NCBI GenBank assembly: GCA_017470715.1
Contig: JAFUYE010000119.1
Coordinates: 7,024 to 71,023, forward strand
Source: Selenomonadaceae bacterium
Lineage (GTDB): Bacteria > Bacillota > Negativicutes > Selenomonadales > Selenomonadaceae
Direction: 5' to 3'
DNA: 64,000 bases
Shown: positions 15,977-57,611 of the stretch, in pieces
Position numbering within the stretch: position 1 is the stretch's first letter
Layout of the letters: each line of letters begins with the position of its first letter
Program-made: the position numbers and the translations under genes
The notes under the pieces: generated by a model
Told to the model about the DNA's origin: nothing
Databases searched by the model: none
The model's input: only the letters and a program-made list of their open reading frames with translations

Positions 15977-15998
15977 GTGATGCCGCAAAAAAATTCCC

Positions 15999-16080
15999 CG
16001 GTTACTTTTAAAAAGTAACCAAACAGTTGACGCGATTAATTTACCGACAACCGAAATTTTATTTCCGCGCCGTGACGTTT
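15999..16080 (+). repeat. TTTTAAAA-palindrome element, copy A
   Basis: CCGGTTACTTTTAAAAAGTAACC + AAACAGTTGACGCGA ... CCGCGCCGTGACGTT. Flanked by 17-bp direct repeats CGCAAAAAAATTCCCCG. Confidence 0.75.
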
Positions 16081-16085
16081 TCGCA

Positions 16086-16111
16086 AAAAAATTCCCCGTG
16101 CGTGACGGGGA
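16086..16111 (-). terminator. intrinsic terminator after recO
   Basis: Minus strand reads CCCCGTCACGCACGGGG followed by AATTTTTTT. Confidence 0.6.
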
Positions 16112-16865: not shown

Positions 16866-17496
16866 TTTTAGCCAACTTTTCAAATTCTGCGGGGATTGTG
16901 CCGCCGGGTGCCGTGATTGTGCCTGCCGTCAAAATAAATTGCAACGCGTCCTGCGGCAACATGTTCAGCGGGATAACGTCCGACTTCTTGACGAAAAAAT
17001 TCATGCCCGCCGTCATGTTCATGCTCCACGGCATGTAAACGCAAACATAATCGTCGCCGAGTCGTTGTTTGACCGCTTCGGGCACGGTGAGCAACAAAAA
17101 TCCGATGACGTAACTTTGATTGTACGGGACGAGCACGACGCTTTTAAACATTGTGTCGGACTGCAACACGGCTTTGGAAACTTGCTTGACCGATTTATAA
17201 ATGACTTTGACGACGGGGATTTTATTCAGCAGTGATTCAAAAAAGCCGAGAATTTTTTTCGAGAAATAATTTCCACTCAGCACGCCGACAATCCAAATCG
17301 CCACGAGGACAAGCAACAATCCCAGACCGGGAAATTTCACGGGCATGTATCGACTGATAAGCCGTTCCGTCAAATCGAACAGCCACACGACGACGAAAAC
17401 CGTTATCGCGGGCGGAATGACAATCAACAGCCCTTTGAAAAAACTGCTGGAAATTTGTTCGGTGAACGACTTCGGTTTGTCTTTATCTTCAGCCAA
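16846..17496 (-). CDS. DUF502 membrane protein
   Basis: Two N-terminal TM helices plus the conserved IPVVKVIYKSVKQV segment. TTG start. Confidence 0.7.
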   Translation of the reverse strand: MAEDKDKPKSFTEQISSSFFKGLLIVIPPAITVFVVVWLFDLTERLISRYMPVKFPGLGLLLVLVAIWIVGVLSGNYFSKKILGFFESLLNKIPVVKVIYKSVKQVSKAVLQSDTMFKSVVLVPYNQSYVIGFLLLTVPEAVKQRLGDDYVCVYMPWSMNMTAGMNFFVKKSDVIPLNMLPQDALQFILTAGTITAPGGTIPAEFEKLAKNGNVHS

Positions 17497-17525
17497 AAGT
17501 TAAACCTTCTCTCAAAACTTATTTA

Positions 17526-17602
17526 ACGTCACGGCGCGGCGATAACGTTTGAAAAAATTTCGGATGCGTCGCGACAATTGTTCCCCCGCTTTTAAAGCGG
17601 GT
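17526..17602 (-). repeat. TTTTAAAA-palindrome element, copy B
   Basis: Minus strand ACCCGCTTTAAAAGCGGGGGAACAATTGTCGCGA ... CGCCGCGCCGTGAC. Flanked by diverged copies of the DUF502 gene 5' end. Confidence 0.7.
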
Positions 17603-17628
17603 CGGTGAACGATTTCGGCTTGTCGTTG

Positions 17629-18927
17629 TTATCGCTCATAATTTTTCTCCGTCAAAATCAGTTCAATAGCGTTCAAAACGTCGTCAATATCTTTTTCGGT
17701 GATGACGAGCGGCGGTTGGAATGCCAAAACATTTCTGCCGACACCGTTCTTGCCGACGATAAAGCCGCGATTTTTCAGCTCCTCAAGTAATGCGTCGAGT
17801 TCTTTGAATGCGGGCGATTTATCCGCGTGAACGAATTCCGCACCGACCATTAAGCCGATACCGCGCACGTCGCCGATAATCGGGAATTTTTTTTGCAAAA
17901 GTTTCAAGCCCGTCATTAATTGTTCGCCGCGAGCTTTGGCGTTGGACATAAGATTTTTTTCGGCAATGTAGTCGAGTACCGCAAGCCCCGCCGTCGACGA
18001 AACCGGGTTGCCGCCCAAAGTCGACGCACCGGGTCTGGTGTACGTGTCGGCAATTTTTTTCGTCGAAATAAACGCGCTTATCGGTTGCCCGTTGCCGAGA
18101 GCTTTTGCGACGCTCATAATGTCGGGCGTCACGTCGAAATTTTCAATCGCGAACATTTTGCCCGTCCGTGCAAAACCGGTTTGAACTTCGTCGGCAATCA
18201 GCAACGCGCCGTATTTCGACAAAATTTCTTTGACGCGCTTGAAATAACCTTTCGGCGGGACGACGATACCGGCATTGCCCTGAATCGGTTCGGCAATCAA
18301 CGCGGCAATTCGTCCGGATGTCGCAGTCTGAATAATCGTTTCGATTTTGTCCGCGCAGGCAAGATCGCAAGTTTCGGGATTTTTTCCCAACGGACAACGA
18401 TAGCAGTACGGATTGGGCGCGAAATTAATTCCGCCGACGGGATTCGTGTCCGTTCGCCACATGCCGATACCGGTTAAACTCATCGTCAATTTCGTGCGCC
18501 CGTGCAAGCCGCTTTGCAACGCGATAAATTCGGAACTGTGCGTGTAAATCGACGCAAGCAACAACGAACCTTCGTTAGCTTCGGTGCCGGTGGAGCAGAA
18601 AAAACTTTTTTGCAAATCGCCGGGCGTGACTTCCGCCAAACGTTCCGCAAGATTAACAAAATTTTCCGTGAGATAAATGTTGCACACGTGTTGAAGAGTT
18701 TTAATCTGCTCAATCATGCGTTCGGTGATAAACGGGTTGCAATGCCCGCAGTTGATAACCGAAACTCCCGCGTAACAGTCGAGATATTTTTTGCCCGTCG
18801 TGTCGAAAAGATATTGCATTTCACCGCGCACAAATTGCGGCGGGTCGCTGTAAAAATGTCCGAGGCACGGCATTATATATTCGCGTTTCTTCGCCAAAAT
18901 TTTTTCTGCACCAATATATTTTTCCAT
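17629..18927 (-). CDS. class-III (acetylornithine/GABA-type) PLP aminotransferase
   Basis: Typical class III pattern (LIADEVQTGFARTG, SVAKALGNG with the PLP lysine). GAGGAG SD favours the ATG at 18927 over the track start. Confidence 0.85.
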   Translation of the reverse strand: MEKYIGAEKILAKKREYIMPCLGHFYSDPPQFVRGEMQYLFDTTGKKYLDCYAGVSVINCGHCNPFITERMIEQIKTLQHVCNIYLTENFVNLAERLAEVTPGDLQKSFFCSTGTEANEGSLLLASIYTHSSEFIALQSGLHGRTKLTMSLTGIGMWRTDTNPVGGINFAPNPYCYRCPLGKNPETCDLACADKIETIIQTATSGRIAALIAEPIQGNAGIVVPPKGYFKRVKEILSKYGALLIADEVQTGFARTGKMFAIENFDVTPDIMSVAKALGNGQPISAFISTKKIADTYTRPGASTLGGNPVSSTAGLAVLDYIAEKNLMSNAKARGEQLMTGLKLLQKKFPIIGDVRGIGLMVGAEFVHADKSPAFKELDALLEELKNRGFIVGKNGVGRNVLAFQPPLVITEKDIDDVLNAIELILTEKNYER

Positions 18928-25280: not shown

Positions 25281-25357
25281 AACGCGTGCGATTATAAACG
25301 TTGCGTCGTGCGTTGTCAAGAAAAAAAATCCACCCGAAATTTCCGAGCGGATAATTT

Positions 25358-25424
25358 GTCGACGGATTTAATTTTGTGACCGCGTGCAGAAAAATTGTTT
25401 GTCAACTTTTTAAAAGTTGCGCCT
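25358..25424 (-). repeat. TTTTAAAA-palindrome element, copy F
   Basis: Minus strand GCAACTTTTAAAAAGTTGAC + AAACAA... Flanked by 22-bp direct repeats GAAATTTCCGAGCGGATAATTT (25336-25357 and 25425-25446). Confidence 0.7.
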
Positions 25425-25496
25425 GAAATTTCCGAGCGGATAATTTTTTATGTAACGTTTGAAATTCCGTGCGTTGAAAGTTGCCGTAGACAAAGT

Positions 25497-26596: not shown

Positions 26597-26742
26597 TTAT
26601 AGAAATTTCCATACGCTTGCGTTGTTTGAACGCGGCGATAAAATTTAATTTTCGATAACGTTGCGGATAGCTCCAATTGGATGCAACGTCACGTTGCCGC
26701 TTGTATTTCAGCGAAGTCGCGCAGGTTTCAAGTTCGATTTGA

Positions 26743-32577: not shown

Positions 32578-35500
32578 TTAAGCTTCCTTAGTCCACTTGT
32601 TGTCGGATTCGGAATCTTTGTCGGTAACGTAAGCTTCGGTGCCGCTGTTGATGAGGAAACGAACATCGTCCGAACCTTCAACAGTCAGGCTGCCGCCGTT
32701 CTTGAAGTTGACGACGACGGAGCTGTCATTAACTTCGGTGCTTGCAATATCGTCAAGCGTGGTGTCGCCGAGCCAGACGATATCGCCTTTGTCGAGGTCG
32801 TAATTCTGAACAGTGTCGTTGCCGCCCGTGACATCGTCGTCGACGCCCTGCAAGTAAGCACCTGCATTGCGGACATAGAAGAACGTGTCTTGACCGTCTT
32901 CGGAGCCGATAAGGACGTTGTTGCCCGCGCCGCCCCACAGGTAGTTGTTGGTGCCTGCGCCGCCGCCGTAAAGCGTGTTGTCGTTGCCGTTACCCGCCAA
33001 AGAGACGTTGGTGTTGGTTTCCGCACTTGCATTGACGACCGCAATACCGCGATAGTATTGTTCGTCAGCGTTGGTGTCAGCCGTGCCGTTCGTGCCGTCA
33101 AGCCAAATATTGGCGTTGGCGATTTCGTTGCCGACATTAAGAGTATCCTGCGCGTTGTCTGCGGAGCTGCCGACGTAGTAGTCAACGTTGCTTGCATAAG
33201 TGAAGGTGTTCGCGCCGGAAGAGTTGCCGATTTTTGCAAGTTTCGTGTCGAAGTCGCCGATTTTGATCTGATAGACTTTGTCGACGCTGATACCGTCACC
33301 TTCGAAGAGCGAAACACGGTTGTTATCGTCGGTGACGAAGTCGATACGTGAGCCGCCGTTTTCGCCCGTGCCGGTGTAAATTGTACCATATTTTTCGAGG
33401 ACGATTGTATCCGCATATTGATTGTCGGGATCAATTTCGGTGCCGAGATTGTGGCTGAAATTGTTAATTGTGTCGAGACCGTCGCTTGCGCCGAAGTAGA
33501 AGGTATGACCCGCAGTAACGGAGCCGTCGCCGCCGGAAATGATGACGTCATTGCCCGCGCCGAGAGAGACTCTCTTGTTCGCGCCTGCCTCTGCACTGCC
33601 GCCGACAGCAACTGTTTCGCGTCCGCTTGTGCCGTAGACATCGGCTTTGCTGTTGTTGCCGAGTTCCAAATAGGTGATGTCTTGATAATTCGTGGGTGCG
33701 TAGTAGCGGCTGAGATGGATTTCGCCGAGATTTTCAGTAACACCTTCGCCGAAGACGAGACGACCTTCGCGTTCCGCAATGTAGAAGTCGGCAATTTCGT
33801 CGTTCGAGGCAACGTCGCCATAGCTGCTATCGTAGCCTTTGCTTTCGTCGTCGGTACGAATAGCCATCCATTTGGTTCCGTTAATGAGAACTTTCGCTTC
33901 ACCGTGCTCCTGTTCAATGGCGTTGCTGGTGTCGTCGAGGAGAATCGAGCCGGTGGAGTCGGTGATTTTGAGGCGGTCATTATCGAACTCAGCTTGATAG
34001 CCTTCACCCGCGATAAGTTCGGTTGCGCCCGCGTTTTTGTCGAAGCCGAAAGTCCAACCCGAAATGGTATCTTTGCCCGCGCTGAGAACGACGGTAATGC
34101 CCGCGTCGCCGGAGTCGGCAGAAACGGTTTCAGCTATGATGGAGTCGTTGCCCGCACCGCCGTTGACGGTATCATTTGCACCGACATAAATCGTGTCGTT
34201 TCCGCTTGTACCGGTAACGTTGTCGCCCGAAGCACCGTTGCGGTCGGAATCGGCAAGAATGAGAGCCGCAGCGTCAAGACCGGAAGCGTCAAGCGCACCG
34301 CCGTTGATGCCCGCGAGTGCCACATTGCGAGGACTGCCGACGATATCGGCGTTGGTGTCCATAACGGCAACTTTCACGAAAAGCGGATCGCTCTGGTCGT
34401 CACCAATCGTGACCATCTTGTTGCCGGTGCCGAAGCCGATTTGGTTACCCGAAGATCTGATATTTTCTTTGGTAATGTCGCTGACGGAATCAATACGCGT
34501 CGCGATAAGAACGTCGCCTTGAGTCGCGTCATAATCTTTAATGGTGTAGCTTGCAGTGTCATAGAAAGCATCTGCACCTGCGCCGCCGGTGACGATGTCA
34601 TTTGCGCCGCCCCAAATGGTGTCGTTGCCTCTGTTGCCTGCGATTGTTGCACGAGTGGTGCCGTCGTGACGAATTTGCGCACCTGCCGTGCCCGCGAAGA
34701 TGCGGTTTTGACCGGTTGCGAGCGCGCCGAGGTAAGCATAACCGCCCGCGTTGCTAAGGTGAACTTCGTGCGAAGCGTCTACTACGCCTTCCGTGCCGAT
34801 TGCAACAGTTGAAGGCACAGTCGAGCCTGTGAGGTCAAGAACAACGTCAAAGACAGAATCACTCTCGTCGGCTTGAATGTTAATCGGAGCCGCGCCGACA
34901 TTCGAGCCCGCAGTCAAAGTGACATGTCCCGCCGTAGCAAGAGCTTCACTGCCGCGAATTTCGATGCCGTTCGGGTTGGAAACTGTGTCATATGTTGTGG
35001 AATCTTCGTTAGCGAAAGTAGCAAGGGTGTTATTAATCGCGCTGGCACCGCCGAGGTTATAGAATCTCGTATAGACATCCGACTTGTTGCCGGCAACAGT
35101 GTCTTCTTCGCTGCCGACGGTCGCGATGTTTTCCCATTGGTCTTCGACGGATTGCAGTTTCTTATAGTTGGCTTCGTCAATGAAGTCGGTCACTGCGCCC
35201 GTGCCGTCAAGCGTGACATACAGGGTTTCGCCCGCGGCAACTTTGACCGCGTTGGAAGAGTCTTCGTTTTTGAAGTGGTAAGTCATACCTGCCGTGCCGC
35301 CCGCAACCGAAACGTCGTCGGTGTTCGTAAGACCCGTGACGGTGACGTTGCTGCCGTCGGTACCAAATGTAATATCCACATTTTGCCCTTCAATGTCTTC
35401 CGCGCCGATTGATGCGCCGTTGACTTCGAAGGTATGTTCGGCGTCGTCGCCGATCGGAGCATAGCTGGCTGTGAAACCGTTAGAATCGCCCGAAACGCTG

Positions 35501-54787: not shown

Positions 54788-54858
54788 AAAAATTTCCCTC
54801 CTCAAGTCGACGAAAAAATTTAAACGCGGTCGACACGCCGAATTTATCAAGCGGTGAA

Positions 54859-54893
54859 TCGCGTCAACTGTTTGTCAACTTTTTAAAAGTTGC
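54859..54893 (-). repeat. TTTTAAAA-palindrome element, copy E
   Basis: Minus strand GCAACTTTTAAAAAGTTGAC + AAACAGTTGACGCGA, upstream of putP. No flanking duplication noticed. Confidence 0.6.
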
Positions 54894-56113: not shown

Positions 56114-56145
56114 AAAATCGCCCGCCAAATTTCGACGAGCGAATC

Positions 56146-56313
56146 ACTTTTAAAAGGTGGGCAAACAGTTGGTTAGAAATTTTTATCAACGGCGAATCAA
56201 TTTCGCGGCAAAAAATCCGTCCGTGTTCGTGACATGCGGCACCCGCTTTAAAAGCGGGGGAACAATTAACGCGCCGCAAATTTATCGATATGTCGACGTT
56301 GACGCCGCGCCGA
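56146..56313 (+). repeat. TTTTAAAA-palindrome elements, copies G and C, with a duplicated rsmB 3' end
   Basis: G is CACTTTTAAAAGGTG + GGCAAACAGTTGG. A 65-bp DR1 (56177-56241) follows. C is CCCGCTTTTAAAAGCGGG + GGAACAATTAACGCG...CGCCGCGCCG (56241-56313). DR2 is at 56314-56378. Confidence 0.75.
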
Positions 56314-56321
56314 AATTTTTA

Positions 56322-57611
56322 TCAACGGCGAATCAACTTCGCGGCAAAAAATCCGTCCGTGTTCGTGACATGCGGCAGGAAAATTTTCGTTTCGACAAGC
56401 TCAAAATCTTCATGCGTCGACAAAAATTTTTCGACAACGGATTGATTTTCGCGCTTCAAAATTGTGCACGTCGAATAAACCAAAATCCCGCCGCGTTTTA
56501 AAGTCTCAGCCGCACTCGAAAGAATTTCCAACTGCAACGTCGGCAACTTGTCAATGTCGGCAAGATTTTTCCAACGCATATCAGCCTTGCGACGAATTAC
56601 GCCGAGTCCGGAACAAGACGCGTCAACCAAAACTTTATCTGCCTGCGCGGGAAATTTTTTGCCGAGTTCGCGAGCGTCAATCAACGTCGGTTCGATAATT
56701 TTTATTCCGAGACGTTCGGCATTTTGTTTTATGTGCTCAATTTTCGTTTCGTAAATGTCCGCCGCAACAATTCGCCCGCGATTTTGCATGAGTTCGGCAA
56801 TGTGCGTTGACTTGCCGCCGGGTGCCGCGCAACAATCGATTACGAATTCGCCCGCCTGAGGATTTAAAAATCTTGCCGCAGTCATTGAACTTTCGTCCTG
56901 AACTTGACACAATCCGTCACGCAACGGCTGAAATTTATCAAGTGCTCCGTGTCCGCGACAAATCACACCTTCGGGCGCGAAATTCGCTGGCTCCGCTTGA
57001 ATGCCGAATTTGTTCAGCGCGTCCAAAATTTTTTCCCGTGTCGTGCGCAAAAAATTCACGCGCAGACAAAGCGGCGGATCTGTGTTGTTGAAGTCCAAAA
57101 TTTTTTTCGTCGCGTCAAGCCCGAATTCGTCGACGAACATTTTCACGAGCGGCGCGGGATGAAAATTTCGCAATGCCAACGATTCAACGTCGTCGCCCGT
57201 CGGAAAATCTGATTTATCGGGCTCACGAACTGCCGAGCGCAAAACTCCGTTGACGAATTTCGACGCGCCGATACCACAGAATTTTTTTGCAAGTTCCGTC
57301 GATTCGTTGACCGCCGCAGAATTCGGCACACGATCCAGGAAAAATATTTGATACATTCCGACACGCAAAACCGCCAAAACTTTCGCGTCAACTTTTTTCA
57401 GCGGGCGATTTAAATATTTGGCGATTTTCCAATCGAGTGACGCGCCGGCTTTAACCGTGCCGTAAACCAGCTCCGTGCAAAATTTTCTGTCGAGGTCTGT
57501 AAATTTTTCTTGTCGCAAGGTCTGTGCCAAAACGACATTTGCCCACGCGCCATTTTTGGAAACTTCGTAAACGATTTTTGTTGCCGCCAATCTGACTTTA
57601 TCCACAATCAA
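56322..57611 (-). CDS. rsmB: 16S rRNA (cytosine967-C5)-methyltransferase
   Basis: NusB-like N-domain plus a SAM-MTase domain (DCCAAPGGKS, DASCSG, YSTCT). Confidence 0.88.
   Translation of the reverse strand: MIVDKVRLAATKIVYEVSKNGAWANVVLAQTLRQEKFTDLDRKFCTELVYGTVKAGASLDWKIAKYLNRPLKKVDAKVLAVLRVGMYQIFFLDRVPNSAAVNESTELAKKFCGIGASKFVNGVLRSAVREPDKSDFPTGDDVESLALRNFHPAPLVKMFVDEFGLDATKKILDFNNTDPPLCLRVNFLRTTREKILDALNKFGIQAEPANFAPEGVICRGHGALDKFQPLRDGLCQVQDESSMTAARFLNPQAGEFVIDCCAAPGGKSTHIAELMQNRGRIVAADIYETKIEHIKQNAERLGIKIIEPTLIDARELGKKFPAQADKVLVDASCSGLGVIRRKADMRWKNLADIDKLPTLQLEILSSAAETLKRGGILVYSTCTILKRENQSVVEKFLSTHEDFELVETKIFLPHVTNTDGFFAAKLIRR

Follow-up and report, generated by a model that had tools for sequence, protein, structure and literature searches.

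Bacteria commonly carry small palindromic repeats, among them REP, BIME, Correia and RPE elements, and the movement of most of them is unexplained. To our knowledge, neither REP elements nor elements of the IS200/IS605 type duplicate their targets. REP, BIME and REPIN elements are small extragenic palindromes with covarying stems, which occur in many copies and in mosaic clusters, after genes, between convergent genes and occasionally inside genes (PMC3733652); in that survey the word 'duplication' is absent, and no Firmicutes or Negativicutes are listed. Long target duplications of variable length have so far stood out as a peculiarity of restriction-modification gene units and a small number of insertion sequences. 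Those made by IS1549 and IS1634 (IS1634 family) measure 8–514 bp, and no mechanistic model had been proposed for them as of a 2008 review (PMC2266710), whereas the duplications of IS1630 (IS30 family) are given as 19–26 bp (PMC2853133) or 16–26 bp (PMC3317919), and the IS1630 paper, by its title as quoted in the latter source, states that the element targets and duplicates inverted repeats. Restriction-modification gene units, a subject of the Kobayashi group, are described as inserting 'with long target duplication' (PMC2853133). The insertion sequences are 1.4–2 kb in length, with their own DDE transposase and terminal inverted repeats, and the restriction-modification units are kilobase-scale, single-copy gene cargos with duplications of 30–400 bp; none of these systems is a high-copy hairpin repeat of 80 nt, which is what is found at the locus described here.

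The window (the whole stretch of 64,000 nucleotides that was analysed) represents the chromosome of an uncultured, Quinella-like rumen Selenomonadaceae bacterium with a G+C content of 45–55%. It carries genes for DNA polymerase III alpha, RecO, Fur, ribosomal proteins with an L10 leader, tRNAs, RsmB, glmS and RNase G, and its promoters are of the sigma-70 type, with a perfect TTGACA-17-TATAAT preceding tRNA-Ala. All RecO homologues from a named source belong to Selenomonadaceae MAGs or Quinella sp., and the closest relatives among the loci compared (denoted below by L numbers) are from Quinella sp. 1Q7, with a DNA identity of 80–81%. The seven copies of a small hairpin element (A–G) that were listed in the original prediction were all found where it had placed them, and the pattern TTTAAAAN{3,8}AACARTT matches the window seven times against 0.12 matches expected, a number that was reached in none of 100 shuffles. 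Two independent metagenome contigs match the window across copies A and B with identities of 100% and 99.94%, and the structures of these two copies are therefore not assembly artefacts of a single record.

The element is a non-coding unit of around 70–120 nt without an open reading frame of its own, and is composed, in the 5' to 3' direction, of a hairpin (H1), the motif GGAACAGTTGACGCG, a long imperfect second hairpin (H2) in most copies and a short tail with a fuzzy end. H1 has a covarying stem of 4–6 bp, the sequence of which is specific to the subfamily, and is followed by the near-invariant stretch (G/C)(G/A)AACA(G/A)TT(G/A)NCGCG (35–48 copies aligned for both). Around 30 variable, mostly self-complementary bases, which form H2, come after the motif and are closed by CGCG...CGCCGCG; H2 is sometimes lengthened by pairing of CAGTTG with the tail. 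The 3' end consists of (T)ATCGCCGCG and a subfamily-specific tail of 0–12 nt, for which CCGTGACGTT, AACTGAAA, TTCAAAC, AATCA and TGTCCRACGTT are the recurring types. The features of the individual copies in the window are as follows.

15984–15999, plus strand: H1-side target duplication of copy A (CGCAAAAAAATTCCCC), identical to 16082–16097 at 16/16 positions; it is present only once at the empty site in L131.
16000–16081, plus strand: copy A, with a two-hairpin fold (z = -3.2) and 49.5 bits in the covariance model.
16000–16020, 16021–16034, to 16069 and 16070–16081: parts of copy A, namely H1 with GGTTAC arms, AAACAGTTGACGCG, H2 up to the CCGCG at 16069 and the tail CCGTGACGTTTT.
16082–16111, minus strand: second duplication copy of copy A (16082–16097), overlapping the RecO intrinsic terminator.
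16093–16111, minus strand: RecO intrinsic terminator (TCCCCGTCACGCACGGGGA and T7).
17460–17517, minus strand: diverged tail-side duplication of copy B, from which DUF502 now takes its working ribosome-binding site, TTG start and first codons.
17523–17602, minus strand: copy B, with CCCGC arms (H1 at 17585–17601) and 77.8 bits in the covariance model.
17603–17657, minus strand: H1-side duplication of copy B, a relic of the original, ATGA-overlapped DUF502 start (ATGAGCGATAACAAC...).
25333–25356, minus strand: tail-side duplication of copy F, part of the terminator ATCCGCTCGGAAATTTCGGGTGGAT and T8, upstream of the tRNA-Ala promoter.
25357–25421, minus strand: copy F, with H1 (CAAC arms, 25403–25419) followed by an atypical 3' part; a divergent member with only 6 bits in the covariance model.
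25422–25445, minus strand: H1-side duplication of copy F, 24 nt with one mismatch.
46787–46860, minus strand: possible eighth, divergent copy in the glmS 5' leader (21.3 bits in the covariance model, E = 8e-6), with an H2-like module (ACTGACGCGCC...GTCGCCGCGTTCATG) that follows a small hairpin of another type (AAGCGTGACGCTT).
51856–51878, plus strand: H1-side duplication of copy D (AAATTTTTTGCACGAAAAAAGCC), 23–24 nt.
51879–52001, plus strand: copy D, with H1 (51880–51900, GGTTAC arms), H2, the tail TTCAAAC and a second, degenerate H2 at around 51958–51994; 52 bits, with the fold.
52002–52024, plus strand: second duplication copy of copy D, overlapping the T-run of the terminator downstream of rpsT.
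54790–54893, minus strand: copy E (H1 at 54876–54892, CAAC arms; 38.9 bits), without a flanking repeat, between the -10 box and the ribosome-binding site of a sodium:solute symporter gene.
56145–56175, plus strand: copy G, only the 5' module (imperfect H1 and GGCAAACAGTTGG), without a flanking repeat, with the shared terminator on one side and the relic RsmB 3' end on the other.
56176–56241, plus strand: H1-side duplication of copy C, 66 nt, a relic of the last ~19 RsmB codons and stop (antisense).
56242–56311, plus strand: copy C, with CCCGC arms (H1 at 56242–56258), ending in ...GACGCCGCGCC; 74.5 bits, with the fold.
56312–56377, plus strand: second duplication copy of copy C, 65/66 identical, the functional RsmB 3' end.

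The palindromes had been described as perfect and as centred on TTTTAAAA; they are clean in six copies, whereas that of copy G is imperfect (CAC TTTTAAAA GGTG), and the centre is not always TTTTAAAA, the loop being either TTTAAAA (7 nt) or TTTTAAAAA (9 nt). The claim that the arms differ between copies and yet stay complementary is borne out by the covariation of H1 over 83 covariance-model matches, in which 98.8% of the cells are paired and compensatory changes occur in six of the seven pairs; 107 compensatory cells were observed, compared with 27.8 in shuffled alignments (none of 500 shuffles reached 107), and the signal collapses in shifted controls. When single copies are folded, the two hairpins reappear (z-scores from -0.75 to -3.3). 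The 3' part has a modular build: two H2 units are present in copy D, the copies from UBA7018 have a common longer tail, copy F and those of L060 and L025 have a different 3' part, and only the head is present in copy G. Copies consisting of a head alone or of a head with a different 3' part are found in G, L060, L025, L038 and L109, units resembling H2 without a head are found in L127, in L108 and at 46787–46860 and 42196–42264 of the window, and the types of H1, H2 and tail reassort among copies. Two superficial resemblances in the motif were set aside. The GGAAC/AAAC and AGTT segments recall the inverse core (RYYYAAC) of an integron attC site; no GTTRRRY is present at the 3' end, and the copies are dispersed among housekeeping genes and not in cassette arrays. 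The TTGACG in the conserved motif has no -10 box at a suitable distance in the alignment and is thus not taken as a promoter.

The element reaches a density of about one copy per 8–9 kb, and the covariance model recovers 83 copies in 467 kb of related loci. The same family is found in about 20 related MAGs, and in a scan of one genome per species the motif was concentrated in rumen Selenomonadaceae, Selenomonadales and Quinella MAGs, which account, with full elements, for at least ~60 of at least 103 loci (both counts being lower bounds); the other loci have no palindromes and represent chance matches. As far as the scan shows, the family is confined to Quinella-like rumen Selenomonadaceae. 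No match was found in Rfam, either at gathering thresholds for the whole window or at E <= 1 for the element regions, and copy B found no match in plasmid and phage collections (blastn, distant mode). Three pattern matches in viral contigs all lack palindromes and were attributed to chance.

Alignment verified that five copies (A, B, C, D and F) are flanked by direct repeats. The repeats of A (16 nt), F (24 nt), D (23–24 nt) and C (66 nt) are close to the lengths first proposed, whereas the pair at copy B (17603–17657 and 17460–17517) extends over ~55–58 nt with ~73% identity and exceeds the ~36 nt claimed for it. The original prediction further held that these repeats are long, variable duplications of the target, and both the statistics of the family and comparisons with empty sites agree with it. 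When a repeat was counted only if the first base of H1 marked the exact end of its 5' copy and its 3' copy lay just past the tail, 35 of 67 family copies showed flanking repeats scoring at least 10, compared with 4 of 394 mismatched controls (1%), in which the flanks of different copies were paired. The duplications across the family are 11–83 nt in length, with a median of 25, whereas a fixed, short duplication is expected of a MITE; duplications of this kind are unusual among small bacterial repeats. No duplication is detectable in about half of the copies, including copy E; either the repeats of these copies have decayed or some insertions make none.

Three sites could be compared in filled and empty states. 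At the site of copy A, L131, the RecO of which is 87% identical, shows the RecO terminator, TTTTTTTGTG and the Fur promoter, with flanks nearly identical to those of the window, one copy of the segment and no element. At the site of copy B, four relatives (L127, L133, L134 and L135) have no element and one copy of the segment, and the stop codon of the aminotransferase gene overlaps or abuts the DUF502 start; in the window, the element lies 38 nt into the old DUF502 reading frame, and the second, diverged copy of the segment now serves the gene. At the RecO start, L131 carries an element, whereas the window and L133 have none; this fresh insertion in L131 lies 19 nt into RecO and is flanked by 100% identical copies of ~55 nt, which run from the 3' end of DUF502 across the ribosome-binding site and the ATG and take in 19 nt of RecO, with the junction GGTTGA|CCCGC. 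Because the three empty sites in relatives each hold a single copy of the segment, the flanking repeats are true target duplications and do not predate the element. The checks that could have refuted the original prediction thus spoke for it. At copy E, which is not flanked by a repeat, the orthologous leader of L108 lacks the element. Taken together, it is very likely that this is a mobile element that duplicates its target.

The original prediction had also taken the long, variable duplications to point to a different insertion mechanism or to repeated template switching at hairpins. The duplications themselves are real, but IS1549, IS1634, IS1630 and the restriction-modification units provide precedents for them, and a wholly new mechanism is therefore not demanded by the duplications alone. 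Like the insertion sequences, the present elements have locus-specific repeats of widely varying length, here with a single copy at the empty site, and like IS1630 they target terminator-like inverted repeats; they differ in being ~80 nt long and non-coding, with one sharp end and one fuzzy end. With the restriction-modification units they share long, variable, locus-specific duplications, the lack of a recognisable mobility gene and repeats that allow later amplification, as in the arrays in L026 and L131. Secondary unequal exchange between the repeats is the simplest explanation for the tandem arrays of element and target seen in L026, L009, L099 and L131, although the array in L131 could alternatively be partly an assembly loop. 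The length of the repeats would permit not only later tandem amplification but also precise loss by recombination.

The elements are inserted in terminators, operon spacers and gene ends and occasionally in open reading frames. They occur in either orientation, and their orientation with respect to the flanking genes is unbiased (13 sense and 15 antisense), for which reason a strand-specific RNA function was rejected. What is duplicated depends on the site. An A-run and part or all of a terminator hairpin are duplicated at copies A, F and D and in L011, L054, L099 and L125; the duplicated segment had been described as the T-run plus a half-stem of a terminator, which is accurate for copy A and incomplete for copy F, because the repeat of the latter takes in the loop and the left arm of the hairpin as well as part of its right arm. 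The last codons and the stop codon are duplicated at the RsmB 3' end at copy C and, independently, in L109 and L123, and a ribosome-binding site, start codon and first codons at copy B and in L038, L065, L077, L103 and L131. Since stop codons, or ribosome-binding sites with their starts, can fall within the duplication, both genes would stay intact at overlapping junctions. In L060 the element and a 34-nt duplication add 38 residues, in frame, inside an NFACT/RqcH-type protein, and in L007 the element itself encodes the C-terminus of a DUF502 protein. In this respect the elements resemble the Rickettsia palindromic elements (RPE), which are small palindromic repeats lying in frame inside protein genes, but the sequences are unrelated and the hosts belong to different phyla, and most copies here are intergenic and have long duplications.

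The two ends of the element differ in their precision. The H1-side boundary is exact in every young copy, whereas the tail-side boundary varies by 0–12 nt or more, even where the repeats are perfect, and abuts an A/T run. The H1 boundary follows a GC-rich stretch ending in CG, TGA or CC, and often lies inside the left arm of a hairpin or directly behind it; the bases before H1, at the end of the repeat, are C (66%) and then G (63%), and the start of the repeat is A/T-rich. The base preceding H1 also depends on the subfamily, being C in 10/10 copies with GG-type arms and G in 10/11 copies with GTCGC arms, while CG or (T)GA precedes GCCGC and CCCGC arms. As the TGA is out of frame in L131, its frequent occurrence at the boundary reflects a sequence preference and not selection for a stop codon. 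At two hot spots, independent events have a common boundary on the A/T side and differing boundaries on the H1 side. At the RecO terminator, where the strains concerned are 95% identical in RecO, the duplication is 16 nt in the window and at least 31 nt in L125, which also has a different H2 interior, and the element in L124 belongs to a different subfamily; at the RsmB 3' end, for which L123 was also compared, it is 66 nt in the window and about 38 nt in L109. New heads also insert at the feet of hairpins, with insertions into other repeats among them (L060).

These boundary features fit a process that starts precisely, with H1, on a 3' end of the target and finishes imprecisely. We consider it probable that the family represents a non-autonomous, REP/MITE-like element; its copy would be laid down hairpin-first at a nicked target. 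A new copy would be made at, or joined to, the 3'-OH left in the target by a nick after ...CG or ...TGA, beginning with the hairpin; copying would end at a variable point beyond H2, the second strand of the target would open at varying distances upstream, where an A/T tract melts readily, and the duplication would then result from filling-in. H1 would be recognised by a trans-acting enzyme encoded elsewhere, for which an HUH-type enzyme, a widely staggering DDE enzyme or a polymerase may be considered. The hairpin-first, target-primed version is put forward tentatively, as the best of several weak mechanistic options, and confidence in any particular enzyme or mechanism is low. The larger open reading frames of the window include no mobility gene, and a Pfam search of 19 of its open reading frames returned only housekeeping families. 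A Y1/HUH partner had been suggested, and tblastn searches with approximate IS200 TnpA and E. coli RAYT queries gave, as a weak test, only noise (E > 1) in the roughly 0.95 Mb searched, which amounts to ~1% of each genome. Strictly hairpin-first copying does not predict the H2-like units without a head, unless these are deletion remnants or belong to a separate repeat family.

Among the alternatives, a MITE moved by a DDE transposase with unusually wide and variable staggered cuts, as in IS1634, IS1549 and IS1630, can draw on the documented duplication lengths cited above and would explain the preference for terminators as recognition of inverted repeats; IS1630 is reported to target and duplicate inverted repeats, and several of the present insertions are in terminators. 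However, the element has no terminal inverted repeats, its two ends being different hairpins (NNCGC or GGTTAC H1 arms on one side and CGCCGCG with the tail on the other) that are not reverse complements of each other in the 35–83 copies aligned. The fuzziness of the 3' end even in young copies and the existence of head-only copies also argue against a DDE enzyme, as does the partial duplication of the hairpin at terminators, where not the whole inverted repeat is duplicated, and no transposase gene was seen among the open reading frames of the window. This explanation is therefore regarded as unlikely.

The covarying hairpin as the recognition feature and the extragenic location, in both orientations and in mosaic clusters like BIMEs, agree with a REP/REPIN-type element served by an HUH tyrosine enzyme (RAYT or IS200/IS605-like) that nicks at the foot of H1; the 5' end of the element would be joined to a free 3'-OH, for example that of a paused nascent strand, and re-annealing upstream would create the duplication. 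The subfamily-dependent flanking base recalls, by analogy, the pairing between guide sequence and cleavage site in IS200/IS605. The family also shares with REP, BIME and REPIN elements the small size, the high copy number, the occasional location inside genes and the positions after genes and between convergent genes (PMC3733652). In contrast to tagged REPs, no GTAG is present beside H1 or H2; H2 starts with GACG, the reverse complement of the CGTC tag, but this sequence is paired, and the sizes of the stems and loops are unlike those of the surveyed families (PMC3733652). The IS200/IS605-derived PATE inserts 3' of a fixed tetra- or pentanucleotide without duplication, whereas the 5' flank is biased but not fixed here and duplications are present, a feature for which neither REP nor IS200/IS605 elements are known. 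An HUH enzyme acting in this way is accordingly held to be distinctly unlikely.

It is also conceivable that no dedicated enzyme is involved, and that a stalled replisome pauses at a GC-rich hairpin, copies a resident element and returns upstream at an A/T tract, in two template switches. The H1-side junctions in or after GC-rich hairpin arms and the tail-side junctions at A/T runs would be expected from such events, as would the fuzzy 3' end, the variable length of the duplications and the reassortment of modules. What speaks against them is the 5' boundary, which is exact to the base in every young copy, together with the H1 loop and GGAACAGTT, which are nearly invariant across about 20 MAGs while the stems covary, a pattern that points to recognition by a protein. 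Random events would, moreover, insert varied sequences, and no consistent microhomology was seen on inspection of the tail junctions, so that template switching appears improbable.

A sharp end, a fuzzy end and a variable duplication together make up the classical signature of target-primed reverse transcription. Target-primed synthesis would give an exact H1 junction, a variable far end, head-only copies and variable duplications, and a SINE-like bacterial retroelement, in which a nick in the chromosome provides the 3'-OH that primes the copying of an RNA or single-stranded DNA whose 3' end is formed by H1, would fit this description. A second hairpin-headed family, represented in the window at 52039–52091 with a 27-nt duplication, behaves alike in the same genomes, and on this reading it would suggest one shared machinery of the target-primed type in the Quinella lineage. 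The analogy with non-LTR retrotransposons and SINEs may extend to the A/T-rich boundary, the truncated copies and a partner encoded elsewhere. In contrast to these elements, no poly(A) or 3' simple repeat is present here, a reverse transcriptase was not found and a DNA template is equally conceivable; we know of no bacterial example of a target-primed, SINE-like element. This specific form is considered a rather remote prospect.

A host regulatory or RNA structure (a terminator, mRNA stabiliser or protein-binding site) under selection, with incidental flanking repeats, is highly improbable, for although H1 with the duplicated T-run scores as terminator-like at copies A and D, many copies lie in operon spacers, right after stop codons and ahead of ribosome-binding sites, and the motifs are conserved across species, the presence of the element varies at orthologous sites among close relatives, different subfamilies occupy one site, the orientation is unbiased, copies occur inside coding regions and no Rfam match is found even at E <= 1. 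A secondary, co-opted role in the host may nevertheless exist.

In conclusion, the elements are best regarded as a hitherto undescribed family of small hairpin repeats from Quinella-like bacteria of the rumen, and such repeats were not found described in the literature on Quinella and Selenomonadaceae, including the Quinella genome paper. Long, variable duplications as such are not a new category, owing to the precedents of IS1634, IS1549 and IS1630. Insertions at overlapping junctions, at the 5' and 3' ends of genes and at terminators regenerate the signal that they interrupt, and a compact genome can therefore be colonised without killing genes, with precise loss remaining possible. For the assembly and annotation of rumen MAGs, the repeats explain contig breaks, spurious short open reading frames and altered gene starts. 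The family is both abundant and young: independent insertions are numerous, hot spots recur, and empty as well as filled alleles occur in public metagenomes from the rumen. Since the insertions record both break points of the target, the mechanism is approachable from the data, and the family is well suited to learning how long duplications arise.

Modules resembling the second half of the main element, in which a 5' hairpin head (H1) is followed by a long imperfect second hairpin (H2) and a short tail, occur elsewhere in the window, and a second type of hairpin-headed repeat and a large ORF were also recorded, as follows.

42196-42264, within the conserved ORF 41694-42425, minus strand: H2-plus-tail-like sequence, AAACAGTTCCCGCGCC...CTTGCCGCGTTCAAA
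46787-46860, minus strand: H2-like module behind a different small hairpin, in the glmS 5' leader
52012-52118: second hairpin-headed repeat with its duplications
32578-36834, minus strand: 1418-residue ORF in the highest-G+C region of the window (52-55%)

The module in the glmS leader scored 21.3 bits with the covariance model built on the main element, and Rfam models applied to the whole window turned up no glmS ribozyme. The intragenic sequence, which aligns without gaps to Quinella sp. 1Q7, is either an old copy or a resemblance by chance (18.5 bits). For the 1418-residue ORF, Pfam gave nothing at E <= 1e-5.

The repeat near rpsT is distinct from the main element. It spans 53 nt (52039-52091) and reads GCAACGTGACGTTGC and then ATCCAATTTGG.... 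The terminator that follows rpsT is duplicated over 27 nt on either side of it (52012-52038 and 52092-52118; 26 of 27 positions agree). Its motif TTGGATGCAACGTCACGTTGCC recurs at 26677-26698 and in seven related loci, and is joined with an H1 head in L025, L060 and L084.

In the related locus L108 (1480-1610), near-identical 41-nt H2 units flank an H1 head and AAACAGTT, so that the modules run H2, H1, H2; this arrangement arose either by insertion of a head beside a resident H2, with duplication of that H2, or by rearrangement of a tandem pair. Positions 1-335 of L131, which reach the contig end, form an exactly periodic array in which three copies of the target alternate with two elements, with a period of 140 nt; this could represent a genuine tandem amplification or an assembly loop. 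In L127 (3750-3885), which is 'empty' for copy A, two H2-like relics without a head, GATAACGCG...GGACGCCGCGTTGAC and ...GCGACGCCGCGTTGT, lie one on each side of the RecO terminator, which suggests that elements had already inserted and decayed at this hot spot in earlier rounds.

At copies A and D, the insertions at the RecO terminator and downstream of rpsT, H1 and the duplicated T-run together score as an additional intrinsic-terminator-like site (15997-16023 and 51876-51904, minus strand), in both cases immediately 3' of the original terminator, and thus these insertions make tandem terminators.
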